A DNA stretch of 64,000 nucleotides. Source: Acidobacteriota bacterium (GTDB lineage: Bacteria; Acidobacteriota; Thermoanaerobaculia; Gp7-AA8). The stretch lies in the NCBI GenBank assembly GCA_025463165.1, contig JAOBAU010000337.1, forward strand, positions 1,073-65,072, in the 5' to 3' direction. Under the pieces are notes generated by a model. It was not told the DNA's origin and searched no databases. It worked only from the letters and a program-made list of their open reading frames with translations. This document shows positions 21,577 through 62,776 of this stretch, one piece after another. Positions within the stretch are counted from its first letter, which is position 1, and each line of letters starts with the position of its first letter. Made by a program: the position numbers and the translations under genes.

Positions 21577-21671
21577 GATGGCTTACATAAGAAAGCCCGA
21601 ATGGGGAACGGGAACGGCACAACAAAGGAAAGTGGATGCGCGCCTTGTGGCGGAATTGTGGCGGGCGCCAC

Positions 21672-21746: not shown

Positions 21747-21750
21747 GGGA

Positions 21751-24761: not shown

Positions 24762-24780
24762 ACCCTCCCGTCTCGAACTT

Positions 24781-24877: not shown

Positions 24878-24879
24878 AC

Positions 24880-46817: not shown

Positions 46818-49090
46818 AGCCCGATGCGCCGCTCGATCGAGCGCATCCGCAGATCGCCGCGAATCGAATCGAAGTGCGGATCGACGCCGATCCGAATCAG
46901 CCACGGCGATCGTTCTTCGACGGAGCGCAGCAGGTAATCGAACGCGGCATCGGCATCGCCGGCGCCGGCCCACGCCAGCGCGAGATCGTAGACGGAGACG
47001 AACTCGTGCTTCGATCGTTCTTCCAGCGCGCGAATGATCGCGATGGCGTCGTCGCGGCGTCCCGCGCGTCCGCGCACTGACGCGAGCACCGCAAGGACGT
47101 ACGAGCTCGGATAGATCGCGGCCACGCGTTCGAGCTGCACGAGCGCGAGCTCGAAATCGCCGCGCGCGGCGAGCACCTGGCCGATCGCGAACTGCACCCA
47201 GATGAAGTCCGGATCGATCTGCCGCGCCTTCTCCAGCATCGTCAGCGCCGCGTCGAAATCGCGGTCGTAGTAGAGCGGCCACGCCGATTCGGTATTGATC
47301 GCCAGTGAGAGCGGATCGAGCTCGCGCGCCAGCGCCATCTGCGCCGCCGCCTCGCGAAAGCGCCGCCGAACGGTGAGCAGCCACGCGTACCAGTGATGCG
47401 CGGTGGCGTAGTTCGGATTCAACTCCAGAGCGCGCTGAAACGACGACTCCGCGCCCGTCCAGTCCCAGTCGAACCAGCACTTGGTGAACGCCAGCGATGC
47501 ATGCGCCTCGGCGAGCGAGTCGTCGATCTCCAGCGCGCGCGTTGCGGCCAGCTTCGCTTTCGGCAGCGCGTCACGCGGCGGAATCGCGCTGTACGTCGTC
47601 AGCAGGTTGTAGCAGTCGGCAAGTCCGACGTACGCGCGCGCATAAAGCGGATCGTGCTCGATGGCCTGATCGAACAGCTCGATGGCGCGACGGAAACCGT
47701 CCGCCGTCCTCTTGTTCCACTGATAGCGGCCGCGCAGAAACAGTTGATACGCCTCCGGGTTTTCCGTGTGGCGCTTGTGCAGCTTCTTCCGATCGGCGCC
47801 GGTCAGCTTCACGCGCAGCTTCTCCGCGATCCGTTCGGCGATCTCTTCCTGAACGGCGAAGATGTCGGAGAAACGCAGATTAAAACGCTCGCCCCAGATC
47901 TGCGCGTTGTCGGAAACCTCGACCAGTTCCGCCTGGATGCTCAGCGATTCGCGGACCTGATGAATGGCGCCGGTCAGCACCGTCTTCACGCCGAGCTCGC
48001 GGCCGACCGTCTGCGGATCGGCGTCGATTCCTTTGTAGCGAAACACGGTGCCGCGCGCGATCACGCGCAGCTTCGGCAAACGCGCCAGCTTGTTGATGAC
48101 GCTCTCCGTGATTCCATCGATCAGGTAGTCGGCGCCAGGATCGCGCGAGCCGTTCGCGAACGGAATGACGGCGATCGATTTCCCGCGCGGTTTCGTCTTC
48201 GTCGGCGCAACCGAACCGGAGTCGCTGCGGATGGCGCGCAACGCGAACGCGAGATCGCGCGCCGACTGAAATCGCTCCGCCGGATTCTTCTCGAGGCAGC
48301 GCGAGATGACGCGCTGCAGATCGTACGGAATGTGGCGTCCGGAATGTTCGAGCGCCGGCGGATCGTCGTTGAGAATCGCCGCCATCGTTTCGATGAGACT
48401 GGAGCGGCCGAAGGCGCGGCGTCCCGTCACCATCTCGTACAGCACGCAGCCGAGCGAGAAGATGTCGGTCGCGGAATCGAGGGCGCGGCCGGAAAGCTGT
48501 TCGGGCGACATATAGCCGATCGTCCCGACGACGTTCTCCGGCGGATGCTCGAGCGCATTCGTGGCGGTGTCGTCGTTGTTGCCGCCCGGCGACGCGGCGG
48601 CGCGAATGACGGCGAGGCCGAAGTCGAGGATCTTCACCTGTCCGTCGGCGAGCACGAAGATGTTCTCCGGCTTCAGATCGCGATGGATGATCTGCTTCGC
48701 ATGCGCGGCCGCCAGTCCGTCACAAACCGCGGCGCCGATCTCGGCGGTCTTCGCCCACGGTATCGCCGCGGACGCGATTCGTTCCCGCAGTGGCTCGCCG
48801 ATCAGGAGCTCGGTGACGATGAACGCCCGCTCGCCGTCGTGATCGAGCTCGAAGATCGAGAGAATGTTCGGATGCGACAGCGCCGCAATGGCCTTCGCCT
48901 CGGTGGTAAAGCGCTCGAACGTTTCCTCGCTGTTCACCACTTCGGGAATCAGGACCTTGATCGCCACGAAGCGACCGAGGCGGGTGTCGACGGCGCGGTA
49001 GACCTCACCCATTCCGCCGGAACCGATGAGATCGACGATCTCGTACGGTCCGAGGCGGCTGTTCGCGGCAAGCGGCATGTGCGGCGACAT
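46814..49090 (-). CDS. Ser/Thr protein kinase with TM, TolB-N-like module and TPR repeats (paralog of 3157-5511)
   Basis: GSGGMGEVYRA, HRDLKPEN, DFG, then TM, then AVIPFANGS…DGITES and TPR. ATG at 49090 or 49078. Confidence 0.85.
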   Translation of the reverse strand: MSPHMPLAANSRLGPYEIVDLIGSGGMGEVYRAVDTRLGRFVAIKVLIPEVVNSEETFERFTTEAKAIAALSHPNILSIFELDHDGERAFIVTELLIGEPLRERIASAAIPWAKTAEIGAAVCDGLAAAHAKQIIHRDLKPENIFVLADGQVKILDFGLAVIRAAASPGGNNDDTATNALEHPPENVVGTIGYMSPEQLSGRALDSATDIFSLGCVLYEMVTGRRAFGRSSLIETMAAILNDDPPALEHSGRHIPYDLQRVISRCLEKNPAERFQSARDLAFALRAIRSDSGSVAPTKTKPRGKSIAVIPFANGSRDPGADYLIDGITESVINKLARLPKLRVIARGTVFRYKGIDADPQTVGRELGVKTVLTGAIHQVRESLSIQAELVEVSDNAQIWGERFNLRFSDIFAVQEEIAERIAEKLRVKLTGADRKKLHKRHTENPEAYQLFLRGRYQWNKRTADGFRRAIELFDQAIEHDPLYARAYVGLADCYNLLTTYSAIPPRDALPKAKLAATRALEIDDSLAEAHASLAFTKCWFDWDWTGAESSFQRALELNPNYATAHHWYAWLLTVRRRFREAAAQMALARELDPLSLAINTESAWPLYYDRDFDAALTMLEKARQIDPDFIWVQFAIGQVLAARGDFELALVQLERVAAIYPSSYVLAVLASVRGRAGRRDDAIAIIRALEERSKHEFVSVYDLALAWAGAGDADAAFDYLLRSVEERSPWLIRIGVDPHFDSIRGDLRMRSIERRIGL

Positions 49091-49152
49091 TGTACGGGCG
49101 AGCACGGGACGAAATCCCGCCGCGCTTTCGTGCGTTGGAGGTGTTCGCCGCG

Positions 49153-49464
49153 ATGCTGCCGATTCCCGAGCTCGATGAGGCGCCAGTCGCCGAACAGAAG
49201 GAAAAAACCGAGGAGCCAAAGCTCTTCCGGGTGCTCCTCCACAACGATGACTACACGACGATGGAGTTCGTCGTCTACGTGCTGCAGTCGGTCTTCAACC
49301 TCGACGAGGAGAAGGCCATTCAGGTGATGCTGAACGTCCACGTGAAAGGGATCGGCGTCGCCGGCGTTTACACATACGAGATCGCGGAGATGAAAGTAAC
49401 GCGCGCGACCGAGCTCGCCCGCGAAAACGAATTTCCGTTGTTGTGCACGATGGAACGAGAATGA
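49153..49464 (+). CDS. clpS: ATP-dependent Clp protease adaptor ClpS
   Basis: LFRVLLHNDDYTTMEFVVYVLQSVF…AIQVMLNVHVKGIGVAGVYTYEIAE, 103 aa. Confidence 0.85.
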   Translation: MLPIPELDEAPVAEQKEKTEEPKLFRVLLHNDDYTTMEFVVYVLQSVFNLDEEKAIQVMLNVHVKGIGVAGVYTYEIAEMKVTRATELARENEFPLLCTMERE

Positions 49465-49466
49465 AG

Positions 49467-49541
49467 GTGCTGAGTGCAGAGTGCTAAGTGCTGAGTAGAG
49501 GCGAATTTCGCACTCAGCACTCTGCACTCAGCACTCAGCAC
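49467..49541. repeat. Heptamer-repeat hairpin (GCTGAGT units) between clpS and clpA
   Basis: Left arm gtgctgagtgcagagtgctaagtgctgagt, 14-nt loop, right arm cactcagcactctgcactcagcactcagcac. Confidence 0.6.
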
Positions 49542-49560
49542 CCGGTCAACACGTAAGCCA

Positions 49561-51798
49561 ATGATCGCCAAACAACTACAAAAAACCTTCGAATACGCGC
49601 TGAACGATGCGATGCGGCGGCGTAATGAATATGTGACGCTCGAGCATTTGCTGTTTGCGCTGCTGCATGACTCCGATGCGATCGAGGTTGTGCGGGCGTG
49701 TGGTGGTGACGTCGATCTGTTGCGCAAGCAGCTTGATGACTTCATGACCAAGCATTACGAGAGCGTGCCGGATGATGGCGAGGTTGAGCCGGTGCTGACG
49801 GCGATGCTGCAGCGCGTCATTCAGTACGCGCAGCTGCACGCGCAGAGCTCGGGGCGCAAAGAGGTCGATTCGGGGCAGATGCTGGCGGCGCTTTATCAGG
49901 CCGAGCGGTCGCAGGCGGTTTACCTGCTTCGCAGTGAAGGGGTGAACAAGCTCGACGTCCTCAACTACCTCGCGCACGGCATCGGAAAGGATTCGCCGTC
50001 GCCTGATTTCACGCCGGCGGGCGCCGACGAGGAGTCGGCTGCGCCGTCGAAAGATCCGCTGAAAACGTATGCGGTCGATCTCATCGAGCGCGCGAAGAAT
50101 GGCGAGATCGATCCGCTCATCGGACGCTCGGCCGAACTGGAACGGACCATCCAGATTCTCTGCCGGCGACGCAAGAACAATCCGCTCTTCGTCGGAGAGC
50201 CTGGTGTTGGCAAGACCGCCATCGCCGAAGGACTCGCGCTGAAGATTCAGCGCGGCGAAGTGCCCGCGGTGCTCAAAGACGCGCAGGTCTGGTCGCTCGA
50301 CATGGGCTCGCTGCTCGCCGGGACGAAGTACCGCGGCGAGTTCGAGCAGCGCCTCAAGTCGGTCATTCACGAACTGACCGAAACGAAGCGCGACACGATT
50401 CTCTTCATCGACGAGATTCATACGATCGTCGGAGCCGGCGCCGTCAGCGGCGGCACGATGGACGCGTCGAACATCATCAAACCGGCGCTGGCCAGCGGGA
50501 AGCTGCGCTGCATCGGCTCGACGACGTACGCGGAATACAAAGCATCGTTCGAACGCGATCGCGCACTCGCCCGCCGCTTCCAGAAAATCGAAGTCGGCGA
50601 GCCGTCGATCCCCGAGACGATCGAGATTCTGCGCGGCCTGAAGGGCTACTACGAAACGCACCATCAGGTGACGTTCACCGACAGCGCGCTCGAGCTCGCG
50701 GCCGAGCTGTCGGCGAAATACATCAACGATCGTCATCTCCCCGACAAAGCGATCGACGTGCTCGACGAAGCGGGCGCCCGCGCCCGAATGCTCCGCATCG
50801 CCGACTCGACGGAAGTCGACGTCATCGGCATCCACGAAGTCGAGCAGGTCGTCTCGAAGATGGCGAAGATTCCGCCACGCACCGTCGCCGTCAACGAGAA
50901 GGAACGGCTGCGCGAGCTCGACTCCGATCTGCGCAAGGTGATCTTCGGCCAGGATCACGCCATCAAACAGCTCGTCGCCGCCATCAAAATCTCCCGCTCC
51001 GGCCTCGGCAATCCCGGCCGTCCCGTCGGCTCGTTCCTCTTCTCCGGACCGACCGGCGTCGGCAAGACTGAGCTCGCCAAACAGCTCGCCGCCGCGCTCG
51101 GCGTCGAGTTCATCCGCTTCGACATGAGCGAGTACATGGAGCCGCACACCGTGTCGCGTCTCATCGGCGCGCCGCCGGGATACGTCGGCTTCGATCAGGG
51201 CGGATTGCTCACCGACGCCATCATCCGCACGCCGTATGCGGTGCTCGTGCTCGATGAGATCGAGAAAGCGCATCCGTCGCTCTTCTCGATCATGCTGCAG
51301 GTGATGGATCACGCCACTCTGACCGACAACAACGGCAAGAAAGCCGACTTCCGCAACGTCGTCGTGATCATGACCACGAACGTCGGCGCGCGCGAGCTGA
51401 GCGACGAGTCGATGGGCTTCCGCAACAACGCCGGCAGCGGCAAAGGACGCGGTGCGATCGAAAGAACATTCGCGCCGGAGTTCCGCAATCGTCTCGACGC
51501 GTGGATCGCCTTCGATCCGCTCGCCTTCTCGACAATCGAACAGGTCGTCGACAAGTTCATCGCAGAGCTGGCGACGCAGCTCGCCGTGAAAGACGTGACG
51601 ATCGAGCTCACGGAACCAGGCCGCGCGTGGCTCGCGAAGCATGGCTACGATCGCGCGTTCGGCGCGCGTCCGATGGCGCGACTCATTCACGCGAAGATCA
51701 AGGAGCCGCTCGTCGATGCGGTGCTGTTCGGCGCGCTGCAGAACGGCGGACACGTCGTCGTGAGTGCGGAGGGCGATGAGCTGAGGCTCGCGTATTGA
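49561..51798 (+). CDS. clpA: ATP-dependent Clp protease ATP-binding subunit ClpA
   Basis: N-domain, two AAA+ modules (GEPGVGKT and GPTGVGKT), 745 aa. No middle domain, so ClpA rather than ClpB. Confidence 0.9.
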   Translation: MIAKQLQKTFEYALNDAMRRRNEYVTLEHLLFALLHDSDAIEVVRACGGDVDLLRKQLDDFMTKHYESVPDDGEVEPVLTAMLQRVIQYAQLHAQSSGRKEVDSGQMLAALYQAERSQAVYLLRSEGVNKLDVLNYLAHGIGKDSPSPDFTPAGADEESAAPSKDPLKTYAVDLIERAKNGEIDPLIGRSAELERTIQILCRRRKNNPLFVGEPGVGKTAIAEGLALKIQRGEVPAVLKDAQVWSLDMGSLLAGTKYRGEFEQRLKSVIHELTETKRDTILFIDEIHTIVGAGAVSGGTMDASNIIKPALASGKLRCIGSTTYAEYKASFERDRALARRFQKIEVGEPSIPETIEILRGLKGYYETHHQVTFTDSALELAAELSAKYINDRHLPDKAIDVLDEAGARARMLRIADSTEVDVIGIHEVEQVVSKMAKIPPRTVAVNEKERLRELDSDLRKVIFGQDHAIKQLVAAIKISRSGLGNPGRPVGSFLFSGPTGVGKTELAKQLAAALGVEFIRFDMSEYMEPHTVSRLIGAPPGYVGFDQGGLLTDAIIRTPYAVLVLDEIEKAHPSLFSIMLQVMDHATLTDNNGKKADFRNVVVIMTTNVGARELSDESMGFRNNAGSGKGRGAIERTFAPEFRNRLDAWIAFDPLAFSTIEQVVDKFIAELATQLAVKDVTIELTEPGRAWLAKHGYDRAFGARPMARLIHAKIKEPLVDAVLFGALQNGGHVVVSAEGDELRLAY

Positions 51799-52472
51799 GC
51801 GAGGGGCGTTCCCGCTTCCCCTCTCCCCGCAAGTCGCGCAGCGACGTGATCGCCATCGGCGACGACCTTCGGGTCGAAACGCTGCGCGACGCCTATCGTC
51901 ACGGCATCTTTCCCTGGCCGCACGAAGACTATCCGCTGCCGTGGTTCTCACCGCGGAAACGAACGCTGCTCTTTTTCGATGAGCTGCACGCCGGCCGCTC
52001 CCTGCGCAAAGCCATTCGCCGCGCGCCGTACACCTTCACGATCGATCGCGACTTCGCGAGCGTCATTCGCGCGTGCGGTGAAGCGGAGCGACCGGAACAG
52101 GACGGGACGTGGATCGAGCCACGCATCATCGATGCGTACATTCGCCTGCACGAAGCGGGTGACGCGCACAGCATCGAAGCGTGGGATGGCGACGAGCTCG
52201 CCGGCGGTCTCTACGGCATCGACGCGGGCGGCGTCTTCACCGGCGAGAGCATGTTCCATCGCCGCAATGACGCGTCGAAGCTCGCACTGCTGTTTCTCGT
52301 CGATCACCTGAGCGCGCGCGGCGCGGCGTTCCTCGATTGTCAGGTGATGACGCCGCACGTCGGCGCGCTCGGCGCGCGCGAAGTACCGCGCGCGCGCTTC
52401 CTCGATCTGCTCGAGGAAGCGCAGAGCGCCGACATCACGCTGTTCCCGCCGTCAGCCGGCGACGAGCGATAG
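51795..52472 (+). CDS. aat: Leucyl/phenylalanyl-tRNA--protein transferase
   Basis: GIFPWP…PLPWFSPRKR…GGLYG…GESMF motifs. ATGA overlap with clpA. Confidence 0.85.
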   Translation: MSEGRSRFPSPRKSRSDVIAIGDDLRVETLRDAYRHGIFPWPHEDYPLPWFSPRKRTLLFFDELHAGRSLRKAIRRAPYTFTIDRDFASVIRACGEAERPEQDGTWIEPRIIDAYIRLHEAGDAHSIEAWDGDELAGGLYGIDAGGVFTGESMFHRRNDASKLALLFLVDHLSARGAAFLDCQVMTPHVGALGAREVPRARFLDLLEEAQSADITLFPPSAGDER

Positions 52473-53897
52473 CGTCTCGATCCCGCCGGCGCGGCAGCGA
52501 TCGCTCCACACCACGTCGGTCAGCTCTCCATTCGTCAGTTGCGGAACGATCGAGAACGGCTCGATCGACTGGCCGTCTTTCTCGAACACGACCGAGCGTC
52601 CGGGGCCGGTGTCGCACGACCAGCCATCCGCGTACAGACGAGACGCGAGCGCGCAGCCGAGGATGAGGGCGGCTTCGTCGTTGCGGCGGGCGTAGGGGAC
52701 TTCGCGCAGCGTCAGCTTGTCGATGAACGCCGGCAGCTCGCGGACGACCTGCGGCAGCGACGACGGCGTCACGCCGAGCAACGCTTTCGCATGTTCCGCG
52801 CTGCGCGACTGCCATTGCGGGAGATAGACCTTGATGGCCGCCTCTTCCCACGCCACCTGTTCGAGCGACGTGGCGCGATCGGGCGCGAGACTGCGCAACA
52901 GCGCCAGCTCGGCGGCGGAGAGGTCGCGCAGCAGTGATGACGCAAGCCGCGCATCGTCGGTGCTCACTTCTTCAGGTAGCGCCTTCAGCGCTTCGACGCG
53001 TTCGCGCAGCGGCGGATGGCTGTCGAAGACGTCGGACTTCCCTTCGCGCAGCTCGTGATCGACGGCATCGCGCACCGCATCGGCGAAGTGCGTGACGAAA
53101 CGCGAGAAGCCGTTTGCGATCGGCGGACGATAGCCGGAGCCGAGGAGCGGCACGACTTCCTGCGACCAGTAAGTGCCGTAGGCGACGGCGGCGCCGTGCA
53201 CCGCCATCAACGCGCCGGCGGCGGCGCGCGGTCCGGCGATCGTTGCGGCGAGCCGATCGGCAGCAAGTTCCTGCGCGCGCGAGATCGCCTGCGTCACGCG
53301 CAGAAAAAATCGGCCATACCAGAGAAACGGCTTGTGCAGGAAGCCCTGCGAGGAAAGGTTCTCGATCGTTCGTCCGATCGCTTCGCGCGTCCGATAGATG
53401 AGCGGCCCGAGCTTCGTGTCGCCGCCGTGATAGTGGCCGAACTCGTGCGCGACGATGGCGCGGAATTGCGAGATCGTCACCGCTTCCAGCAGCGGCAATC
53501 CGAGTCCCATGACGCGCCGGCTGCCGAAGCCCATCACGCCGCCGCGCTGCATCACCCACGCGTTGACGTCGCCGACGAGATAGACGTCGGCAGGCATCTC
53601 CTGTTCTGACTTCGTCGCGACCTCGCTCAGCACCGCGAAGAGCTCCGGATGCTCGCTCTCCGTCAGCCGCGGACCTGGCGCTTCGAACTTGTCGCGGCGC
53701 GGCACGATCGACCAGAGGATCGCCAGCGCCGCGACGACGCAGAGGATGGTCGGTCGCAGATAAAGCTCGTGCGCCCACATCACTTCCGCGTAGACGAAAA
53801 AGAAGAGCGCGCCGGCGAGAGCGAATGCCAGCGCGTAGAAGCCGAACATCAGCAGTACCGCAAGGACTGCGCGTCGCTTCAGCGAGTTGTCGGGCAT
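52452..53897 (-). CDS. M48-family zinc metallopeptidase (HtpX-like), membrane
   Basis: HEFGH motif and N-terminal TM helices. Confidence 0.8.
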   Translation of the reverse strand: MPDNSLKRRAVLAVLLMFGFYALAFALAGALFFFVYAEVMWAHELYLRPTILCVVAALAILWSIVPRRDKFEAPGPRLTESEHPELFAVLSEVATKSEQEMPADVYLVGDVNAWVMQRGGVMGFGSRRVMGLGLPLLEAVTISQFRAIVAHEFGHYHGGDTKLGPLIYRTREAIGRTIENLSSQGFLHKPFLWYGRFFLRVTQAISRAQELAADRLAATIAGPRAAAGALMAVHGAAVAYGTYWSQEVVPLLGSGYRPPIANGFSRFVTHFADAVRDAVDHELREGKSDVFDSHPPLRERVEALKALPEEVSTDDARLASSLLRDLSAAELALLRSLAPDRATSLEQVAWEEAAIKVYLPQWQSRSAEHAKALLGVTPSSLPQVVRELPAFIDKLTLREVPYARRNDEAALILGCALASRLYADGWSCDTGPGRSVVFEKDGQSIEPFSIVPQLTNGELTDVVWSDRCRAGGIETLSLVAG

Positions 53898-53953
53898 GGA
53901 CGATTATAGACGCCGTTCGAGAGCGTATATTCGCGGCACAAGGAGTCGAAATC

Positions 53954-55042
53954 ATGCCCACTCTCTCGCGTCGCGCCTTCGCGCAACTGGTCGGCGCCGG
54001 TGCCGCCGCTGCTGCGCTGCCAATGCCCTCACTGCTCGCCGCGCCGCCGCGCGAATCGGTCGTCCGACTGAGCGCCAACGAGAATCCGTACGGTCCCTCG
54101 CCCGCCGCACTCGCCGCGATTCGCGACGCGCTGCCGCTGGCGTGGCGCTATCCCGATGAAGCGGCGGAACAGCTCGCCGAAACGATCGCCCATCTCCACG
54201 GCGTTCCCGTAAATCACATCCTCCCAGGCGACGGTTCGAGCGAGATTCTCAAGCTCGCGGCGCTCGCATTCACGGGACGCGATCGCAAGCTGGCGATGGC
54301 GGTACCGGCGTTCGAAGCGATCGGACTTTACGCGCGTGCGGGCGGCGTCGAGGTCGCGACGGTTCCGCTCGATCGGCATTACGCGCACGATCTCGCCGCA
54401 TTAGCGGCGACGAACGCGTCGCTGATCTACATCTGCAATCCGAACAATCCGACCGGCTCGATCACGCCGTCGTCATCGATGCGTTCGTTCCTCGAGACGT
54501 TGCCGGCGACTTCCATCGCACTCGTCGACGAGGCGTATCACCACTACGCCGGCAGCAGCGATTACGAAAGCGTCGCGGCGCTGGTGAAGTCGCGGCCGAA
54601 CCTCATCGTGGCGCGGACGTTCTCGAAGATCTACGGCATGGCCGGCCTCCGCTGCGGCTACGCGATCGCGCAGCCGGATTTGATTCGCAGCATGGAAGCG
54701 CAGGCGCAGTGGGACTCGCTGAACATTCTCGCGCTGGCGGCCGCACGCGCATCGCTCGGCGACACGCAGCACGTCGCTGAAGGAAAACGGCGCAACCGCG
54801 AAACTCGCGACGCGCTCGTCGCGTCAATGAAGGACATGGGCCACGATGTGATTCCGTCGCAAACGAACTTCGTCATGATCGATACCGGCCGCGACGTGAA
54901 GCCGCTGATCGGCGCGCTGCGCGGCCGCGGCGTGCAGGTCGGGCGACTCTTTCCCGCGCTGCCGCATCACCTGCGCGTCACGATCGGCAAGCCGCCGCAG
55001 ATGGAGCGTTTCGTCGATGCGTTCCGCGCGGTGACCGCATGA
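53954..55042 (+). CDS. Tat-exported class I/II aminotransferase (histidinol-phosphate aminotransferase family)
   Basis: Twin-arginine signal MPTLSRRAFAQLVGAGAAAAALP. NENPYGPSP…YICNPNNPTG…TFSKIYGMAGLRCGY (PLP Lys). AGGAG RBS. Confidence 0.8.
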   Translation: MPTLSRRAFAQLVGAGAAAAALPMPSLLAAPPRESVVRLSANENPYGPSPAALAAIRDALPLAWRYPDEAAEQLAETIAHLHGVPVNHILPGDGSSEILKLAALAFTGRDRKLAMAVPAFEAIGLYARAGGVEVATVPLDRHYAHDLAALAATNASLIYICNPNNPTGSITPSSSMRSFLETLPATSIALVDEAYHHYAGSSDYESVAALVKSRPNLIVARTFSKIYGMAGLRCGYAIAQPDLIRSMEAQAQWDSLNILALAAARASLGDTQHVAEGKRRNRETRDALVASMKDMGHDVIPSQTNFVMIDTGRDVKPLIGALRGRGVQVGRLFPALPHHLRVTIGKPPQMERFVDAFRAVTA

Positions 55043-56262
55043 AGAAACTGCTGATCATCGCCGCGATCGTCGCCGTACTCGTCGCGCTGATCTGGTTCAG
55101 CGCGGCGCAATATCTCAACTCCACCGCCGTCACCGCTGCCCAAACGCGCTGGCCCAACAACCTCGGCACCGCCGACGACATCGCGCGCCACTTCCCCGCT
55201 CACGGAGATAACGAGACGGCAACGCAGGTCGTCGCGCTGGCAAAGCCGCTCGGCGTCCGCTTCGACGATCGCGGAACGGAGCCGGAGATTCAGACGATTC
55301 GCCCGGCGATGTCGCAACATCTGGCGCACGTCATCAGCACCGATGGTGATGCAGTCGATGCGCCGCCGGCGCCGCTTGCGCAATGGCTCACGCAACATGC
55401 GGCCGACATTCGTGCGCTGCAGCAGCAACTCGTCACGCACGACGCGCCGCAGTGGGCCGTCGATGCCGACACGCTGATCGAGGCGCCGATGCCGCGGCTC
55501 GTCTCGCAAATGGATCTCTTCCGCGTGCTCGCGCTCGACGCGCTCGAACAGCATCGCGCCGGCAACGACGCGCTGGCGTGGGAAGACCAGCACGCGTCGT
55601 GGAAGCTCGCGCAGGGACTCGCCGCGCGGCCGGAGCTGATCTCGCAACTCATCGGCATCGCCGGCGCGCGGCTCGCGAACGGCGTGGCAGCGAAACTCTC
55701 GGCACCGGCGCCGGCGTGGCGTCACGAACTGGCATCGTTCGACTTCGGCAACGCCGCCGTTGCGTCGCTGGCGTACGAAGCGACGCACAGCTGGCGTTAC
55801 GTTCGCCGCTATCCGGCCGGTGAGCCGGATGACGACAAGCTGCGGAATCGCGGACGAGAATTCATCGGCATCATCCTCGCGCCCTATCGCCGTCATCGCG
55901 CCGGCATCGCACTCGAACAACAGCGCCGACTGGCGATGGAGCTCGCATCGCTCAGCGCGTGCGATCCGCATCCGCGCACACCGCAGGGAACCCCGAATCT
56001 CGCCGAAGCATGGCGACGCATCGGCCGGTTCCGCGCGGAAGTCGAAGGAGTCGAGAAACTCCTCGCGCTGAAAGCGGCGCGGGCGCGAAGCGGAACGTGG
56101 CCGGAGTCGATGCCGTCGATCGCCGGCTCATCGTGCAGCGACGGCAGCTGGCAGTATCAGCGCGCCGCCGACGGCTCGATGTCACTCGCGTTCAGCAAAC
56201 CGATTCCGGTCGCGCACGCGCAGACGACGGTGGTGCCGCTGGTGTTCAGGTACGGGAAGTAA
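55039..56262 (+). CDS. Hypothetical secreted/anchored protein (407 aa)
   Basis: N-terminal MKKLLIIAAIVAVLVALIWF. ATGA overlap with the aminotransferase gene. Confidence 0.55.
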   Translation: MKKLLIIAAIVAVLVALIWFSAAQYLNSTAVTAAQTRWPNNLGTADDIARHFPAHGDNETATQVVALAKPLGVRFDDRGTEPEIQTIRPAMSQHLAHVISTDGDAVDAPPAPLAQWLTQHAADIRALQQQLVTHDAPQWAVDADTLIEAPMPRLVSQMDLFRVLALDALEQHRAGNDALAWEDQHASWKLAQGLAARPELISQLIGIAGARLANGVAAKLSAPAPAWRHELASFDFGNAAVASLAYEATHSWRYVRRYPAGEPDDDKLRNRGREFIGIILAPYRRHRAGIALEQQRRLAMELASLSACDPHPRTPQGTPNLAEAWRRIGRFRAEVEGVEKLLALKAARARSGTWPESMPSIAGSSCSDGSWQYQRAADGSMSLAFSKPIPVAHAQTTVVPLVFRYGK

Positions 56263-56345
56263 TGAGGCATGGGGTATGAGGTATGAGTAAAGGCAAAGGC
56301 ATCTACTCATGCCTCATGCCTCATGCCTCATTACTCATGCCTCAC
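56259..56345. repeat. Heptamer-repeat hairpin (CATGAGG units) spanning the stop codons of convergent genes
   Basis: gtaatgaggcatggggtatgaggtatgagtaaagg … ctactcatgcctcatgcctcatgcctcattactcatgcctcac. Confidence 0.55.
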
Positions 56346-56863
56346 AACACAATCGTGTACGCCAGCGTCGTCATGTCTTTCATCCGATCGAGATAGACGT
56401 GGCCGTCGGTGTGGTCGATCTCGTGCTGGAAGATGCGCGCGGTGAAGCCTTCGACTTCGACCGTGACCGCATCGCCATCGTGATCGATGCCGCGGACGCG
56501 GAGCTTCTTCCAGCGCGAGACGTCGCCGCCGAGGAACGGAACGCTGAGGCAGCCTTCCCAGTCATTGATTTTCTCGTCGCCGATCGGCTCGTACGTCGCG
56601 TTGAACAGCACGCCGGCGCCGACCGTTTTCACACCGCGACGTTTCGCGACGCGTTCCTGCACTTCATAAACATAGATGCGCATCGGCAGATGAATCTGCG
56701 GGCCGGCAAGGCCGACGCCTTCGTAGGCGTGCATCGTTTCGATCATGTCGTCGACGAGCGAGCGGAACTTCCCCGCTTTGATGTCCGCGACTTCGACGTC
56801 GCTCGCCTTCTGGCGCAAAACGGGATGGCCGAGCCGCGCCACTTTCAGAATCGACATCGTCAA
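56342..56863 (-). CDS. def: Peptide deformylase
   Basis: GVGLAGPQI, EGCLSVP and QHEIDH motifs. Confidence 0.9.
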   Translation of the reverse strand: MTMSILKVARLGHPVLRQKASDVEVADIKAGKFRSLVDDMIETMHAYEGVGLAGPQIHLPMRIYVYEVQERVAKRRGVKTVGAGVLFNATYEPIGDEKINDWEGCLSVPFLGGDVSRWKKLRVRGIDHDGDAVTVEVEGFTARIFQHEIDHTDGHVYLDRMKDMTTLAYTIVL

Positions 56864-58059
56864 ACCTCCGTAATGAGCGGCATACGCCGCATCGCCATCG
56901 CGATTGAGAACGCGGTAATCGTCAGCACCGCGCCGCCGTAAAACGCGCCGCGTGCCTGGGCGAGATCGTAAAGAAATCCGGTGGCGATCGGTCCGAGAAA
57001 TCGCGCCAGCGAGCCGATGCCGGATGCCAGTCCGAGCATCGAGCCCTGTTCATCGGCCGAGGTCACTTTCGACAGCAGCGCGGTCAATGACGGGTACGTC
57101 AGTCCCTGGCCGATGGCGATGAAGAACGCGACCGCGTAGAGACCTCGCACATCCCACAAACTCGGCACGGCGAGAAAGCCGATGGTGAACGACGCGGCGC
57201 CGATCGCGACGAGGGTCCGTTCGCCGAGCCATTTCGATAGTCGTCCGATCAGCCCGCCCTGGATGACAGCGACAATCACACCCATGAAGAGAAACCAGTG
57301 CGCCATGTCGCGCTGCCGGAATTGAAAGCGATCGCGCGCGTGCAGCGTGACGCTCGTCTCCATGCCGGAGACGGCGAAGAGCGTGAGGAAAAGTCCGGCG
57401 ATGATCGCGCCGAGGATGGCGCGGGAGAGCATCGCATTCCAGACGCGCTTGTCGAATTGCGGCGGAACCTTGCTCCGTACCGTTGCATTCCGCGGACGCG
57501 ATTCGGCGAGGACGAAGAAGGCGACCGCGAGAGCGATGAACGAGAGCGACGCGGCGACGATGCCGGGCAGCAGGTTGCCGTGCATGCCGTGATGCGAGCC
57601 GTACTCGCCGAGGAAACCGCTGAGCGGCGGACCGAGAATGAACCCCATGCCGAACGCGGCGCCGATCGCTCCCATCCCCTTCGCGCGATTCTCGGGCGTG
57701 GTGATGTCGGCGATGTACGCCTGCGCGGTGCCGATGTTCGCGCCGCCCGCGCCGGCGATGACGCGCGAGATGAAGAGCAGCAACAAACTGCGCGCGAATC
57801 CGAAGAGCAGGTAGCCGACGCAGCTCGCCGTGAGACTGATGAGAATCACCGGCCGCCGTCCGATCCGATCGGAGAGCCGCCCCCAAACGGGCGCAAAGAA
57901 AAACTGCATGATCGAATACACACCGACCACCGCTCCGACCATCACCCCGCTCGCGTGATACTCCCGCGCATAGAAGGAAAGGAACGGGATGACCATCCCG
58001 AACCCGATGAGGTCGATGAAGACGGTGAGGAAGAGAACGCCGAGGGAGGGGCGGTGCAC
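56860..58059 (-). CDS. MFS transporter
   Basis: 12 TM. GRLSDRIGRRPV (MFS motif A). GTG start. Confidence 0.85.
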   Translation of the reverse strand: MHRPSLGVLFLTVFIDLIGFGMVIPFLSFYAREYHASGVMVGAVVGVYSIMQFFFAPVWGRLSDRIGRRPVILISLTASCVGYLLFGFARSLLLLFISRVIAGAGGANIGTAQAYIADITTPENRAKGMGAIGAAFGMGFILGPPLSGFLGEYGSHHGMHGNLLPGIVAASLSFIALAVAFFVLAESRPRNATVRSKVPPQFDKRVWNAMLSRAILGAIIAGLFLTLFAVSGMETSVTLHARDRFQFRQRDMAHWFLFMGVIVAVIQGGLIGRLSKWLGERTLVAIGAASFTIGFLAVPSLWDVRGLYAVAFFIAIGQGLTYPSLTALLSKVTSADEQGSMLGLASGIGSLARFLGPIATGFLYDLAQARGAFYGGAVLTITAFSIAMAMRRMPLITEV

Positions 58060-58082
58060 GGCGGGAGAGTATAGAGGCAGTA

Positions 58083-58153
58083 CTGAGGACTGAGGACTGA
58101 GGACTGAGTGAGGCCGGCGCGAAGCGACTCAGTCCTCAGTCCTCAGTCCTCAG
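58083..58153. repeat. Heptamer-repeat hairpin (CTGAGGA x3) in divergent intergenic region
   Basis: ctgaggactgaggactgaggactgagt - 16 nt - gactcagtcctcagtcctcagtcctcag, with perfectly complementary arms. Confidence 0.6.
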
Positions 58154-58170
58154 CACTTACACTGTCGGGC

Positions 58171-58857
58171 GTGCGCCCCCGCCTCGCGTTGTTCGACATC
58201 GACGGCACGCTGATCACCGATGGCGGTGTCTCGCGCGAAGCGTATGGCGAAGCGCTGACGCTCGTGTATGGCTACGAAGGCGATCTCGGACGCTACGATT
58301 TTTCGGGACGTACCGATCCGCAGATCACGCACATGGTGCTCGGCGACGCGGGATTTCCTGCGGCGACGATCGACGAGCGGATGAGCGAGCTTTGGCGGCA
58401 TTACCTCGCCGGGCTGGCGCGCAATGCGTCGTCGGGACGCGTGCGGATGCTCGACGGGATTCGTCAGCTGCTCGAAGCGCTGGTGTCGATCGATGAAGTA
58501 ACCCTCGGGCTGGTCACCGGCAACATCGAGCCGGGCGCGCGGCTCAAGCTCGGCGGCGTCGGATTGAATTCGTACTTTCCGTTCGGCGCGTTCGGCAGCG
58601 ATTCGCAGAAGCGCGAGGAGTTGCCGCCGATCGCCGTCGCGCGCGCGTCGGCATCGAACGGTCATCGCTTCAATGGACGCGACGTCGTCATCATCGGCGA
58701 TTCGATTTACGACGTTCGCTGCGGCGTGCCGCATGGCGCGACGACGATCGCCATCGCGTCGGGACGAACGTCCGCAGAGCTGCTGCGCGCCGAGAATCCC
58801 GATCACTTCTTCATGAGCGCGGCCGACGACGGCGTGCTGGAAGCGATCGCAGGCTGA
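58171..58857 (+). CDS. HAD-family hydrolase
   Basis: LALFDIDGTL (motif I), GLVTGN, IGDSIYD. GTG start at 58171 preferred, since the 58108 ATG lies inside the hairpin repeat. Confidence 0.75.
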   Translation: MRPRLALFDIDGTLITDGGVSREAYGEALTLVYGYEGDLGRYDFSGRTDPQITHMVLGDAGFPAATIDERMSELWRHYLAGLARNASSGRVRMLDGIRQLLEALVSIDEVTLGLVTGNIEPGARLKLGGVGLNSYFPFGAFGSDSQKREELPPIAVARASASNGHRFNGRDVVIIGDSIYDVRCGVPHGATTIAIASGRTSAELLRAENPDHFFMSAADDGVLEAIAG

Positions 58858-58870
58858 CTACAATGCGTTC

Positions 58871-59410
58871 ATGACCGTCGCCGCATCGCGAATCCGGCTC
58901 ATCGTCTCCGACGTCGACGGCGTCTGGACCGACGGCCGCATCATCTACGCCGGCGACTCGCTCGAAGTGAAAGAGTTCAACGTCCGCGACGGCCTCGGCG
59001 CAAAGCTCGCGCAGAAAGCCGGCGTCATCGTCGCGCTGCTGACGAGCCGCAGCTCGCTGGCGCTCGAACGCCGCGCGCGCGAGCTCGGAATTGTCGAGCT
59101 TCATCAGGGCGCCGCGAACAAACTCGAAGAGCTCGAACGGATCGCCACCAAGCTCGTTCTCTCCCTCGATCAGGTCCTCTACCTCGGCGACGATCTCCCC
59201 GACCTCGCCCCGATACTGCACGCCGGCCTCTCCGCCGCTCCCGCCGACGCCGCGCCGGAAGTACACGCGGCCGCAACGTGGAAGCTCGACGCCGCCGGCG
59301 GACGAGGCGCGTTTCGCGAGGTGGTCGAGCGCCTCCTGCGCGAGCGCGGCGACTGGGACGCGATCGTCCGCGAGTTTCAGCGCGGCCGACCGCAGGGCGC
59401 GAGCATCTAG
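58871..59410 (+). CDS. kdsC: 3-deoxy-D-manno-octulosonate 8-phosphate phosphatase (KdsC, HAD)
   Basis: LIVSDVDGVWTDGRIIY…YLGDDLPD. Confidence 0.8.
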   Translation: MTVAASRIRLIVSDVDGVWTDGRIIYAGDSLEVKEFNVRDGLGAKLAQKAGVIVALLTSRSSLALERRARELGIVELHQGAANKLEELERIATKLVLSLDQVLYLGDDLPDLAPILHAGLSAAPADAAPEVHAAATWKLDAAGGRGAFREVVERLLRERGDWDAIVREFQRGRPQGASI

Positions 59411-60681
59411 TTCGCGACGCGCTCCACGCCCATCGGCCATTCGCCGCGAAGGAACTGCCGAATCGCGGCGAAGACGACCGCCGGCTCGTCGATCCACACC
59501 GCGTGCGCGGCGTGCGGCACCGTTAGCAGTCGCGCGTTCGGAAGCGCGCGCGCCCAGTCGCGGCCGCCGTCGTATGGCGCGTTGCGATCGAACGTGCCGT
59601 GAATCGTCAGCACCGGCATCGCGATCTTCGCGAGCTGCGTCGGTGAGAGATCGACGGCGACGATCGATGGCCAGAGCTGGTTGAAATGGCGATCGAGTCG
59701 GGCAGGCGCTTCGTTGGCGAGCTCGCAGGTGGAGCGAAGCCTCGACGCGTGCGACGGATCGCCGACCAACTGATGGCTGGTGACGTCCCACGCCGCGGCG
59801 CAGGTGTCGGTCGACGCCTTCGCGGCGACGCCGCTGTCGTCATTCGTATGCGCGGCGAACTTCAGCGATGCGTTGCGCGCCACCGGCGCGAGTTGCACGA
59901 CGCGCGCGACGTGCTCGGGATGTTCGGACGCGTACATCGCGACCATCTTGCCGAGGTAGGACCAGCCGACGGGAATGACGCGATCGACGTTGAAGTGGCG
60001 GCGGACGGCTTCGAAATCTTTCACGTCCTGCTGAATCGTCACCGAGTCGAGCTTGTCGAGTGACGCGGAGCGTCCGCGGTTGCGCGGATCGTACGAGATG
60101 ACGGTGGCGACGTCGGCGAGCGCGCGGAAATCGTCGAAGAGCATCGCGCCGAACGGGACGATGAGCGTCACCGGCGAGGAGCCGATTTTCTGAAAGTGTA
60201 ATTTCACGCCGTCGTCGGTGACGACGTCGCCTTCCGTGAACGGCTCGACGTTTTCGGCGAGACAGGCGGCCGGAGAGCCGGGACCATCGAAGAGAACTTT
60301 CCATGCGCCGTCCGGCTGTCGCAACCAGATCGACGAGTAGTTGCCGATGTGATGCGCGTTCGCGTCGAAGACCGGACCGGTGGAGAGTCCGATCGTGCCG
60401 GCGGCGTTCGTGACGACGCGCTCCGGCGTCCAGCTGAACGGCGCAACCGGTCCGGCGAAGAAGCGCGACCAGCGTTCGACGACTGCCGCTTTGCCGGCGA
60501 GCGTCTTCGCGGAAAGGAACGTGGCGTCGTCGAGCACGAAGGAGAAGAACTTCGCGGAATCGCGATCGGCGAACGCTTTCGCGAAGGCGATCTCGCCCGC
60601 GCGCACTTCATCAGCGTGCGATTGCGCGAATGCGGACGTGGCGGCGAGTAGCGCGAGGAGGACGGCGACGACTTTTTGCAT
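59407..60681 (-). CDS. Secreted alpha/beta hydrolase with N-terminal SnoaL/NTF2-like domain
   Basis: Signal peptide MQKVVAVLLALLAATSAFA. Nucleophile elbow VGWSYLG. Confidence 0.7.
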   Translation of the reverse strand: MQKVVAVLLALLAATSAFAQSHADEVRAGEIAFAKAFADRDSAKFFSFVLDDATFLSAKTLAGKAAVVERWSRFFAGPVAPFSWTPERVVTNAAGTIGLSTGPVFDANAHHIGNYSSIWLRQPDGAWKVLFDGPGSPAACLAENVEPFTEGDVVTDDGVKLHFQKIGSSPVTLIVPFGAMLFDDFRALADVATVISYDPRNRGRSASLDKLDSVTIQQDVKDFEAVRRHFNVDRVIPVGWSYLGKMVAMYASEHPEHVARVVQLAPVARNASLKFAAHTNDDSGVAAKASTDTCAAAWDVTSHQLVGDPSHASRLRSTCELANEAPARLDRHFNQLWPSIVAVDLSPTQLAKIAMPVLTIHGTFDRNAPYDGGRDWARALPNARLLTVPHAAHAVWIDEPAVVFAAIRQFLRGEWPMGVERVAN

Positions 60682-60758
60682 CGGGCCAGAGTAGCGGCTC
60701 GCGCCGGCGCCGCTGTTTGCGAACCGGCGCGAAGCGGTGACGAAACGCGAACGCGCCG

Positions 60759-61418
60759 TCAGCCGCCGGTTACACGCGCGTACGTCGCGTAATCGGCGAC
60801 GGCCGGATCGCCGCAATCGAATGGCGGCCGCGGGTGATATTGCACGATGAGCTGCGTCGCTTTCGCGATCCCTTCATCGCCGGTGATGAGCGCGATCAAT
60901 TCGAGCGTGCCATCGAGCGATGACGCGACGCCGCCGGTCGTGAAGCGATTGCGATCGCGGACGAATCGCGGATAGCCGTTCACGACCTTCACGTTTTTGT
61001 TCGCCTTCAGTTCATCGAGCGCCGCCCAATGCGTCGTCGCCTGGTAACCGTCGAGCAGTCCCGCCGCGCTGAGGATCACCGCTCCGGTGCAGACCGCCGC
61101 GACCCATGTCGCCTTCTTCGCCTGCTGTTTGATGAACGCGAGAAAGTCGGCGTCGCCGGTGGCCGCGGAGACGTCCTGCGCGCCGGGCACGAGCAGCACA
61201 TCGAGTTGTTTGTTTGCGTAATCGGCGAACGTCGCCATCGGCGTCAGCAGCAACTTCTGTCCGCTCACGACCGGCTCGCACGTCTTCGCGAGCAGCACGG
61301 TGTCGAGTGTGTTGCCGCTCCAGAACTGATTCACGCGGCTGAGCATGTCCCACGGACCGGCGACGTCGATCAGATCAACGTTCGGGAAAATCGGTACGCC
61401 CACGCGGATGGTCTTCAT
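60759..61418 (-). CDS. DJ-1/PfpI family protein
   Basis: AAVCTGAVILSAAGLLDG (Cys nucleophile elbow). ATG at 61418 (MKTIRVGVPIF). Confidence 0.8.
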   Translation of the reverse strand: MKTIRVGVPIFPNVDLIDVAGPWDMLSRVNQFWSGNTLDTVLLAKTCEPVVSGQKLLLTPMATFADYANKQLDVLLVPGAQDVSAATGDADFLAFIKQQAKKATWVAAVCTGAVILSAAGLLDGYQATTHWAALDELKANKNVKVVNGYPRFVRDRNRFTTGGVASSLDGTLELIALITGDEGIAKATQLIVQYHPRPPFDCGDPAVADYATYARVTGG

Positions 61419-61436
61419 GACACCTCTTTTATCGCT

Positions 61437-61548
61437 GGTCCTGAGTCCTGAGTCCTTAGTCCTGAGTGCTCGACCCACGGCGCGATGAGCATCGCGAACG
61501 CGAAGCGTCACTCAGGACTCAGGACCAAGGACTCAGGACTAAGGACTC
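61437..61548. repeat. Heptamer-repeat hairpin (TCCTGAG units) with nested inner palindrome
   Basis: ggtcctgagtcctgagtccttagtcctgagtg … cactcaggactcaggaccaaggactcaggactaaggactc. Inner cgcgatg-ag-catcgcg. Confidence 0.55.
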
Positions 61549-61552
61549 GCTT

Positions 61553-62776
61553 CTAAATCACGATCGTTTCGTGAATCGGCTTGTTTTCCCAGAACCGTTT
61601 GATCGACAGCGGTGCGCAGTCGAGCGTTCGATATTCGCCGAACATCATCACTTCCGCGAGCGCGAGGCCGGCGGCCGGCGCTTCCATCGCGCCGTGGCCG
61701 GAGAAGCCGGTGGCGAAGACGAGATTGCGGTAGTGCGGATGCTCGCCGAAGACGGCGTTGTGATCGACGGCGTTCGTGTCGTAGAGACCGCCCCACATCG
61801 ACATCAGGCGGCAGCGCTCCATCCCCGGCACGCGCTCCTGCAGGATGTAATTGATCTTCTCCTCGTAATACGTCGCGTCGGCCGTGACGTCGTAACCGGC
61901 CGGCGTGTCGGGATCGGCGCGGCCGATGAGGAGGTTCGGTCCCTCCGGACGAAAGTAGATGCCGTCGTCGATGATCGTCATCGGGATCCGCTCGAAGCCT
62001 TCGATCGGCGGGAAGTTGGTGATGTAGAGCATCCGCTTCAGCGGAATGACCGGCGGCAGGTCGTCGCCGGTGATGCCGGAATGTTCGAGCAGCTCGTTCG
62101 TCCATGCGCCGGCGGCGATGAGGATCTTTTCGCTGGCGAGGAACGTCCCGTCTTCGAGCTCGACCCCTTCGTACACGCCATCTTTGATGCGCAGTTTCTT
62201 CACCGCGGTTCGAAGGCGCAGCTCGGCGCGACCGTTCATCAGCTCCAGCCCGCGCTCGAAATATCCCTGCGCCGCGGCGGACGGATCGAAGCTGCCGCAG
62301 TCGGGGCCGAAGACGCCGCCGGCGATCGGCTTCATCTGCAGCAGCTCGTTCACGTCGGGATCGATGTGATCGATTCCCGCTTTCAGGCCGGGCACTTTCT
62401 TCTCGACTTCCTCCGGGCTGAGGAACTCGATGCGCACGCCGTTCTTCGCCCACTCCTCGCCGAACGTTTTCGCGCTTTCGTAGTTCTCCGCGTATTGGCA
62501 GAAGAGATAGCCGCGCTGATCGAAGCCGATCGGGAACTGCAGCTCATCCTGAAACTGCGCCAGCTTTTTGATCGAGTAGCTGGTCAGGCGCATGTTGATC
62601 GGCGTTGTCCAGATGTTGCGGAAGCCGCCGGCCGAAAGCGCGGTCGATCCTTTCGACAATGCATCTTCGCGCTCGAGGACGAGGACGCGTCCCTGGTAGC
62701 CGAGTTTCCCCAGGTGGTAGAGGGCGGATCCGCCGATGATGCCGCCGCCGATGATGATCAGGTCGTGTTCGGGCAC
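61553..62776 (-). CDS. FAD-dependent oxidoreductase (DAO family, sarcosine/glycine oxidase-like)
   Basis: Dinucleotide-binding DLIIIGGGIIGGS. GTG start with AAGGAG 5 nt upstream. Confidence 0.8.
   Translation of the reverse strand: MPEHDLIIIGGGIIGGSALYHLGKLGYQGRVLVLEREDALSKGSTALSAGGFRNIWTTPINMRLTSYSIKKLAQFQDELQFPIGFDQRGYLFCQYAENYESAKTFGEEWAKNGVRIEFLSPEEVEKKVPGLKAGIDHIDPDVNELLQMKPIAGGVFGPDCGSFDPSAAAQGYFERGLELMNGRAELRLRTAVKKLRIKDGVYEGVELEDGTFLASEKILIAAGAWTNELLEHSGITGDDLPPVIPLKRMLYITNFPPIEGFERIPMTIIDDGIYFRPEGPNLLIGRADPDTPAGYDVTADATYYEEKINYILQERVPGMERCRLMSMWGGLYDTNAVDHNAVFGEHPHYRNLVFATGFSGHGAMEAPAAGLALAEVMMFGEYRTLDCAPLSIKRFWENKPIHETIVI

Follow-up and report, generated by a model that had tools for sequence, protein, structure and literature searches.

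Between the genes for the adaptor ClpS and the AAA+ unfoldase ClpA, a contig of an Acidobacteriota bacterium (JAOBAU010000337.1, of which positions 1,073 to 65,072 were analysed; this 64-kb stretch is called the window) carries a large hairpin with arms that are tandem arrays of heptanucleotides. An earlier note, made from the letters alone, had taken this hairpin as the first of four members of a genome-specific, REP-like family (REP, repetitive extragenic palindromic), and had proposed that the RNA structure might attenuate clpA or decouple its expression. The locus raises the question of whether the hairpin, which we call E1, is a device of the clp genes or a copy of something that is found elsewhere. 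Our answer, to which we give a probability of about 60%, is that E1 would be one copy of a dispersed, fast-evolving family of palindromic intergenic elements of about 75 to 115 bp. It is not a conserved clp regulator, since relatives have at the same junction either a hairpin of different units, a remnant of 13 nt or a direct ATGA overlap of the two genes.

The clpS-clpA hairpin and its sisters in the window

The stop codon of clpS (TGA) is located at 49462-49464, and E1, which begins 1 nt further on, spans 49466-49542 of the 96-nt spacer. An inverted-repeat search, Tandem Repeats Finder (TRF) and RNA folding all confirmed that a large hairpin of tandem heptamers directly follows clpS. The inverted arms were as the earlier note had described them, apart from a small shift of their ends and a loop that measures 15 nt and not 14 nt. 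Both arms are 31 nt long and 90% complementary, and when the register is shifted by one unit, 25 nt are paired at 96%. TRF found a period of 7 in the two arms, with 4.3 and 4.6 copies of the units GTGCTGA and GCACTCA, respectively, and in the 5' arm the TGAG core is accompanied by AGAG and TAAG variants. The predicted RNA fold has -58.9 kcal/mol on the plus strand (z -8.2) and -60.3 kcal/mol on the minus strand (z -8.4), and none of 200 shuffled sequences was equally stable; for single-stranded DNA the prediction is -36.1 kcal/mol (z -8.8). The non-palindromic tail between the hairpin and the clpA start codon has counterparts in relatives (TTTGAACCA in contig L002 and GCGAACC in L005), and no evident Shine-Dalgarno sequence could be read in its 18 nt. 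Downstream, clpA overlaps aat by 4 nt.

The three further hairpins with a TGAG core that had been proposed for the window (E2, E3 and E4) are real, although their ends differ slightly from those first given and are corrected in Table 1. E2 contains the stop codons of both genes that converge on it, namely the TAA of a gene for a 407-aa protein (56260-56262) and the TGA of def (complement of 56342-56344). E3 is flanked by the genes for an MFS transporter (start 58059, minus strand) and a HAD hydrolase (start 58171, plus strand), with start codons at distances of 19 and 13 nt; its arms are 97% complementary, and its heptamer arrays are 100% regular according to TRF. E4 is located between two genes of the minus strand, 2 nt past the TAG stop of a flavin adenine dinucleotide (FAD) oxidoreductase gene (stop 61553) and 17 nt ahead of the start of a DJ-1/PfpI gene (start 61418). 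Judged by Pfam and by sequence, two of the four settings are co-directional, one is convergent and one divergent.

All eight arms of E1 to E4 have a period of 7 with 3.7 to 5.6 copies (TRF), the four inverted repeats are 31 to 37 nt long and 86 to 97% complementary, and the predicted folds of E2 to E4 range from -52 to -75 kcal/mol. When the 64 kb were scanned for a period of 7, only the arrays of E1 to E4 were obtained; other periods from 4 to 12 gave 0 to 3 regions. The three-unit TGAG pattern TGAGNNNTGAGNNNTGAG, with up to two mismatches, matched 24 times in the window versus 3.5 matches expected, and 23 of these 24 matches were inside E1 to E4, always on the plus strand in the left arm and on the minus strand in the right arm. 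The loops of E3 and E4 both carry CGCGAAGCG; otherwise, the short loops of E1, E2 and E3 are only patchily similar. The four elements are subfamilies of one architecture and not near-identical copies.

Table 1. Positions of the elements and of the adjoining clp genes within the window.
Feature	Position	Strand	Description	Basis
clpS	49153..49464	+	adaptor	ORF (open reading frame) list; homologues with PF02617, named ClpS by their sources
AATGA direct repeat	left 49460..49464, right 49560-49564	+	5 nt, 100 nt apart	sequence, compared with L001
E1, 5' arm	49466..49496		heptamers GGTGCTG AGTGCAG AGTGCTA AGTGCTG AGT	sequence, TRF, inverted-repeat search
E1, loop	49497..49511		AGAGGCGAATTTCGC	read from sequence
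E1, 3' arm	49512..49542		ACT CAGCACT CTGCACT CAGCACT CAGCACC, complement of 5' arm	
Tail, hairpin to clpA ATG	49543..49560	+	CGGTCAACACGTAAGCCA, 18 nt, non-palindromic	
clpA	49561..51798	+	AAA+ unfoldase	ORF list; synteny and Pfam families in relatives
E2	56258..56344		ATGAGGY units, between convergent genes	inverted-repeat search, TRF, fold
E3	58079..58157		CTGAGGA units, between divergent genes	inverted-repeat search, TRF, fold
E4	61436..61550		CCTGAGT units, 42-nt asymmetric core (GCTCGACCCACGGCGCGATGAGCATCGC...)	inverted-repeat search, TRF, fold

All four elements are located within 12 kb (49400-61600), and the search with TGAGNNNTGAGNNNTGAG detected neither copies nor remnants in positions 1-49000 of the window. 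Two other long palindromes were observed at 21671-21747, where the 29-nt arms are 97% complementary, and at 24779-24878, where the 41-nt arms are 85% complementary. CATCCTGAGCG..GCGAAGGATCT and the complementary sequence form the basis of both, which are not heptamer arrays and look like a second, unrelated family of palindromic repeats.

Polarity, spread and genomic setting

Whichever strand is read, the architecture consists of a 5' arm (TGAGNNN)n and a 3' arm (NNNCTCA)n. In a scan, with a single genome taken for each species, for three TGAG units followed after 12 to 42 nt by three CTCA units, at least 119 stretches of the species-representative genomes matched, and the estimated chance expectation was well below one; as the TGAG core was required, the scan gives no measure of how conserved that core is. 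Among the listed matches, the carriers belong to the Acidobacteriota, Cyanobacteria, Bacteroidota, Chloroflexota, Gemmatimonadota, Planctomycetota, Desulfobacterota, Myxococcota, Nitrospirota, Alphaproteobacteria and others. Complete genomes with such elements include those of Calothrix sp. PCC 7716 (AP025018), Calothrix NIES-4105 (AP018290), Mucilaginibacter pocheonensis and Hymenobacter metallilatus. The commonest units over all phyla were TGAGTGC, TGAGTGA, TGAGGAC and TGAGTCC, which include those of E1, E3 and E4, and unit positions 5 to 7 vary freely from element to element. TGAG could not be upheld as the only core, since palindromes of different heptamers (TGGAGAG, TGAATTA and others) also occur, at a frequency about 8 to 10 times lower.

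The arrangement with the TGAG arm first was found in 48 stretches of viral contigs, and the inverse arrangement, with the CTCA arm first, in three. One of these three was the gap between adjacent forward elements and one was not a hairpin; true inverse hairpins, two in number, are present on a single viral contig. Among the secondary elements of the fetched loci, nine were forward and none was inverse, and the bias toward the TGAG arm first amounts to about 30:1. Control cores of equal base composition gave 6 and 5 stretches in the viral contigs. Since the same units recur across phyla and forward elements so outnumber inverse ones, the family is not confined to one genome and has a fixed polarity. 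The idea of a genome-specific family had to be abandoned, given the same architecture with TGAGTGC, TGAGGAC and TGAGTCC units in many phyla and on viral contigs. The earlier note had also conceded that its family would fall if no further copies were found and the four loci did not align; further copies are present in other genomes.

In this wider sample, the arms have a median length of 30 nt, the loops of 18 nt and the whole elements of about 80 nt. According to heuristic ORF calls of our own, co-directional genes flank 95 of 131 elements (73%), convergent genes 23 (18%) and divergent genes 13 (10%), so that at least one gene points into 90% of the elements and divergent contexts are depleted. 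For the 169 genes that point into an element, the median distance from the stop codon to the element edge is 1 nt; 74 of these stop codons fall inside the element and 65 lie 0 to 10 nt off. The next outgoing gene has its first possible start at a median distance of at least 18 nt. At the outer boundaries, the left side follows the consensus AGT-NN-TGAG and the right side CTCA-NN-ACT. In genomes with a G+C content of 45-62%, a moderate enrichment of A is seen in the left flank and of T in the right flank.

Dispersal was shown for the subfamily of E4. Its arms and its core GCTCGACSCAC..CGCGATGAGCAKCGC are common to five copies at unrelated loci (alignment A4), which align across the left arm and about 30 nt of the asymmetric core. 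Two of the copies are located on the L004 contig, one of them inverted, and a metagenome scan for the core yielded only two further copies, on the unrelated contigs L176 and L177, in which tblastn detected no homologue of the DJ-1 or oxidoreductase genes that flank E4. Because an asymmetric core is conserved at unrelated loci, the E4 subfamily is a dispersed repeat, and it spreads by copying. With respect to transcription, the core stands either way round. In the E4 subfamily alone, a conserved internal sequence with terminal inverted repeats at unrelated loci was found, as in MITEs (miniature inverted-repeat transposable elements). The 100-nt insert at E1 has AATGA on both sides, and no consistent target-site duplication was detected at E3 or at the E4-type copies, the empty sites used in these comparisons being about 13% diverged.

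Among viral contigs, at least five TGAG hairpins lie within 8 kb of L129 (2492-9811), and several each are present on L167, L172, L143 and L149. The loops of the latter four contigs share AAGACCCTCTGG in both orientations, a pattern as in the E4 core.

Occupancy of the junctions in relatives

The window falls within the Acidobacteriota by its ClpS homologues. Syntenic contigs of relatives were fetched, and a clpA tree was built by neighbour-joining with L178 and L181 as outgroup; its topology is (((window, L002), L001), (L004, L005)). Junction occupancy varies among these relatives, and the arms change faster than the adjoining genes. Between clpS and clpA, where the window has GCTGAGT units, the hairpin of L002 and L003 consists of CTGAGGA units around a longer loop, in flanks that are 89.5-95% identical; the motif AGAGGCG...CGC of the E1 loop is also contained in the L002/L003 loop, and the right part of the L002 loop resembles the loop of E3. 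A full hairpin of the CTGAGGA type is present in L005, and only 13 nt of the right arm are left in L004 and L006, with clpA of L004 and L005 being 98.5% identical. L001 has no spacer at all, its two genes overlapping by ATGA, and the outgroup has a plain spacer of 41 nt. At the sites of E2 and E3, L001 has spacers of 3 nt and 42 nt, both without an element, and no heptamer array was found across its 14.8 kb. L004, on the other hand, carries an E4-type element at the E3 (MFS/HAD) junction. Another junction, that between clpA and aat, is occupied by an E4-type element in L004 (9628-9744) and in L005 (from 12630 onward), the arms of which differ from each other; clpA and aat overlap in the window (51795-51798) and overlap or abut in L001.

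The tree places L001 between two element-bearing lineages, and for this reason we downgraded the idea that E1 was inserted into an ancestral ATGA overlap. The clpS-clpA elements of L002 and L005 share their edges: on the left a TAG stop lies at the edge or immediately ahead of it, and the tail reads GAACC(A)ATG. This favours regarding these two as orthologous. The AATGA pair around E1 is either a target-site duplication or a microhomology whose recombination would restore the overlap of L001: judged from the sequence, a deletion between the AAT/AATGA direct repeats would be sufficient for this.

In sum, each arm comprises four to five heptanucleotides with a TGAG core, in an element that typically touches or contains the upstream stop codon and leaves about 18 nt or more to the next start. 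Arm turnover might proceed by microsatellite-type slippage or by conversion, and arm complementarity would be upheld at the DNA level rather than by selection on one transcript. The elements would mostly be selfish or neutral passengers, probably tolerated because they fit junctions and supply TGA stops in all three frames whichever side is entered. For clpS-clpA, the consequence would be a hairpin whose predicted stability is about -59 kcal/mol, with the clpS stop 1 nt upstream and the clpA ATG 18 nt downstream. Since L001 has an ATGA overlap at this junction, E1 would remove stop-start translational coupling; it could also hinder 3' exonucleases or be cleaved by RNase III, and is not a canonical intrinsic terminator. 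In these ways E1 may affect the expression of clpA.

Some minor features of the same junctions were noted. The divergent MFS/HAD spacer contains a TATAGA box both in the window (58060-58170) and in L001 (13201-13242), and in the window E3 lies between this box and the HAD start; if TATAGA were the -10 region of a promoter, the E3 hairpin would be in the 5' leader of the HAD gene. The outgroup has solitary CCCCACT (= AGTGGGG) arrays upstream of uvrD and clpS (L178 and L179, 5197-5236 and 9942-9972; L180, 242-270; L182, 2446-2474), which are of a G/C-tract heptamer type and not palindromic. On L182, a group II intron-type reverse transcriptase gene (RVT_1 and GIIM domains, 458-1885) adjoins clpS.

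Competing explanations and known repeats

Several observations weigh against a dispersed family as the source of E1. In mutual BLAST comparisons, E1 to E4 gave no alignment past the heptamer core, a result that would also fit an origin in place, and their units and loops differ. The AATGA repeat at E1 is the only hint of a duplication, and the same bases are needed to keep both reading frames. Neither a transposase nor a target-site rule nor a clean pair of filled and empty sites was found in the 64-kb window and the fetched loci. On the clpA tree, the states at clpS-clpA are explained with equal parsimony by one gain followed by losses or by two separate gains, and the persistence of an element at one junction over about 16% of clpA divergence could mean selection. 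In addition, the gene contexts outside the window depend on our heuristic ORF calls.

Several of these points would be accounted for if the elements had arisen where they stand, a heptamer microsatellite slipping and expanding beside a stop codon and template switching converting it into a palindrome. No mobile element would then be involved, and the family resemblance would come from shared mutational mechanics. Heptanucleotides are reported to be the most abundant class of long simple sequence repeats in most bacterial genomes surveyed (PMC4679880, PMC4692102), each copy in the window has a unit and a loop of its own, unit type and number shift between close relatives, no target-site duplication could be defined, and the same loci hold other heptamer arrays with unrelated units. 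However, template switching should yield both polarities, in contrast to the bias of about 30:1, and it would not bring one asymmetric core of 26-28 nt with its arms to unrelated loci in both orientations, nor lead to the recurrence of the same few units over phyla. We therefore regard an origin in place as unlikely, and keep to a dispersed family as the preferred reading.

The position at stop codons could alternatively reflect a benefit to the host, with the elements serving as insulators at gene ends, be it through stop codons in three frames both ways, as bidirectional terminators, as stabilisers of 3' ends or as RNase III sites. A TGA every 7 nt covers all three frames from either side, so that a ribosome entering from either side would meet a stop within three units; stop codons abut the elements or fall inside them, as in the case of E2, within which both genes end; and a gene points into 90% of the elements, with divergent contexts being depleted. 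The A-rich left and T-rich right flanks would likewise be in line with such a role. Stems of 25-33 bp, as formed here, are in principle long enough for RNase III. Against this, no copy in the window has a U-tract: a terminator scan of 48500-62500 left all four elements uncalled, no T run follows any of them, the bases past the arms of E1, E2, E3 and E4 being CCCGGTCA, CAACACAA, TTACACTG and GCTTCTAA, respectively, and intrinsic (Rho-independent) termination was rejected for the window copies on this ground. No selection for stop codons in each unit was seen either, since 50 of 116 variant units still hold a stop, which equals the 5/12 expected without selection. Among the stem mismatches of co-directional elements, 54 were G·U and 75 A·C on the sense strand; G·U is not in excess of A·C, which argues against a bias on the RNA side. 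E3 and 10% of all elements are located between divergent genes, the E4 core stands in either orientation to transcription, the clpS-clpA junction works without an element in L001, and, in our reading of the published unit, the GGGAATC pairs of Xanthomonas (see below) have no stop codons. Taken with the variable occupancy, the results on G·U pairs, stop codons and E4 orientation argue against a dedicated strand-specific RNA function and fit an upkeep of the palindrome at the DNA level; insulation as the reason for these elements appears quite improbable to us.

It has to be considered, further, whether a protein that recognises 7-nt repeats binds to the arrays, either one of the IHF/HU type or a cold-shock-domain protein that binds single strands, the palindrome merely supplying two arrays. 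A TGAG core of fixed polarity is what would be expected of a directional site, protein binding has been proposed for the MTYCTGA pairs, which are the nearest relatives of our elements (PMC2700814), and CspB reportedly binds heptamer repeats with one protein per heptamer (reviewed in PMC4679880). Given that unit positions 5 to 7 are free to vary and that close relatives differ by gains and losses of elements, this possibility is a faint one. Least credible of all is the functional idea of the earlier note, a dedicated cis-regulatory RNA attenuator that sets the clpA:clpS ratio: a very stable structure is predicted exactly between both cistrons, and two sister clades have an element there, but it is missing in L001 and in the outgroup, cut to 13 nt in L004/L006, made of another unit and loop in L002/L003, without a terminator tail, and repeated in the same build at unrelated junctions, one of them divergent. 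Rfam gave no match for the elements at the gathering threshold, and at E-values of up to 5 returned just generic hairpin models of microRNA precursors, with scores that stayed far under the respective thresholds.

Among known repeats, we have filed the clpS-clpA element under the heptanucleotide-repeat inverted pairs. Rehm et al. 2015 (PMC4692102) described in Xanthomonas campestris and X. axonopodis arrays of GGGAATC, most often with four units, of which 70-75 convergent pairs on opposite strands per genome are able to form stem-loops. These pairs are near to or overlap stop codons, 65-70% being located between co-directional, 16% between convergent and 7-8% between divergent genes, very close to the 73%, 18% and 10% of the TGAG elements, and their repeat length and sequence differ between close species. 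Thus, 7-nt arrays, stem-loops formed from opposite strands and an intergenic position near stops are found in both types, whereas the G-tracts are not. The Xanthomonas unit is G-rich, was explained by G-quadruplex (G4) formation and, unlike the TGAG type, has no stop codon, while GCTGAGT, ATGAGGY, CTGAGGA and CCTGAGT have no GGG run, with the exception of one GGGG in an E2 variant unit, and TGAG units cannot form G4. That they nevertheless share the Xanthomonas architecture would argue that it is the heptamer-palindrome design, and not G4 formation, that needs explaining. The GGGAATC type is reported to be limited to Xanthomonas and Nostoc (PMC4692102), in contrast to the many phyla of the TGAG type.

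In Geobacter metallireducens, Aklujkar et al. 2009 (PMC2700814) listed as putative regulator sites ('class 3 global regulator binding sites') arrays of five MTYCTGA heptanucleotides, with eight intergenic pairs on opposite strands, one of them between proB and proA. The MTYCTGA unit overlaps the xTCCTGA unit of E4; however, CTGA is followed by A or C and not by G, the arrays were read as IHF/HU-type sites, and only one genome is concerned.

We consider it possible, although we would sooner expect it to fail, that TGAG palindromes, the Xanthomonas 'G4 repeats', the MTYCTGA pairs of Geobacter and some of the short tandemly repeated repetitive (STRR) sequences form one pan-bacterial, non-autonomous class, also present in phages, whose terminal inverted repeats are directional heptamer arrays, and which is inserted or retained at the stop-codon side and dispersed by an enzyme or by a host process. 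With one such class, the fixed polarity, the arms of four units and the reappearance of the same units in different phyla would be accounted for. If this reading holds, operon junctions are reshaped by a type of intergenic repeat that is common and for the most part without a name: clpS and clpA are separated here versus an ATGA overlap in a sister lineage, and E2 supplies two convergent stops. Such elements could mislead the prediction of gene ends and comparative studies of 'regulatory' hairpins between genes, and might pass for dedicated riboregulators, as in the functional idea dismissed above. Fixed polarity and the sharing of units across phyla would then point to a mechanism of dispersal or maintenance.

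The comparison with REP sequences that the earlier note had drawn holds in so far as the elements are palindromic and intergenic. The arms of REP sequences are imperfect palindromes with a conserved GTAG/GTGG head, not tandem arrays. A 20-40-nt imperfect palindrome with a GT(A/G)G head, which defines REP, was not found here, the arms being direct heptamer arrays. REP sequences, BIMEs (bacterial interspersed mosaic elements) and REPINs, mobilised by REP-associated tyrosine transposases (RAYTs; e.g. PMC3116915), are also intergenic, dispersed and variably occupied, with palindromic doublets of about 80-110 nt, but they are specific to species or genera, whereas TGAG units occur in many phyla. 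No RAYT was identified in the 64-kb window, the ORFs of which were not screened systematically. The Correia elements (NEMIS) of Neisseria are MITEs of about 100-150 bp with terminal inverted repeats that insert beside genes, are co-transcribed with them, fold into long hairpins processed by RNase III, and vary in presence by strain; their terminal repeats are fixed at 26 bp, and they show a TA duplication. Unlike these, the TGAG elements have variable heptamer arrays as 'terminal repeats' and no duplication rule has been shown for them.

A full-text literature search with the arm sequences returned only unrelated primer-like matches, and in the literature on STRR sequences, heptamers and small dispersed repeats no description of a TGAG palindrome was found. 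The spread across phyla, the polarity rule and the shared core, of which this search gave no description, are additions to the known kind. The STRR sequences of heterocystous cyanobacteria, of which STRR1-3 are said to have been given by Mazel and colleagues in 1990 as CCCCAGT, TTGGTCA and CAACAGT, are intergenic heptamers too. MacGregor 2015 (PMC4679880) described TAACTGA repeats near start codons in Beggiatoaceae, cyanobacteria and Bacteroidetes. Both kinds resemble the TGAG elements in that many contain CTGA or TGA and lie near starts or stops across phyla; they differ in unit sequence and in being mainly direct arrays, with only one inverted TAACTGA set, in the BOGUAY genome. TGAG hairpins themselves were also found in Nostoc and Calothrix.

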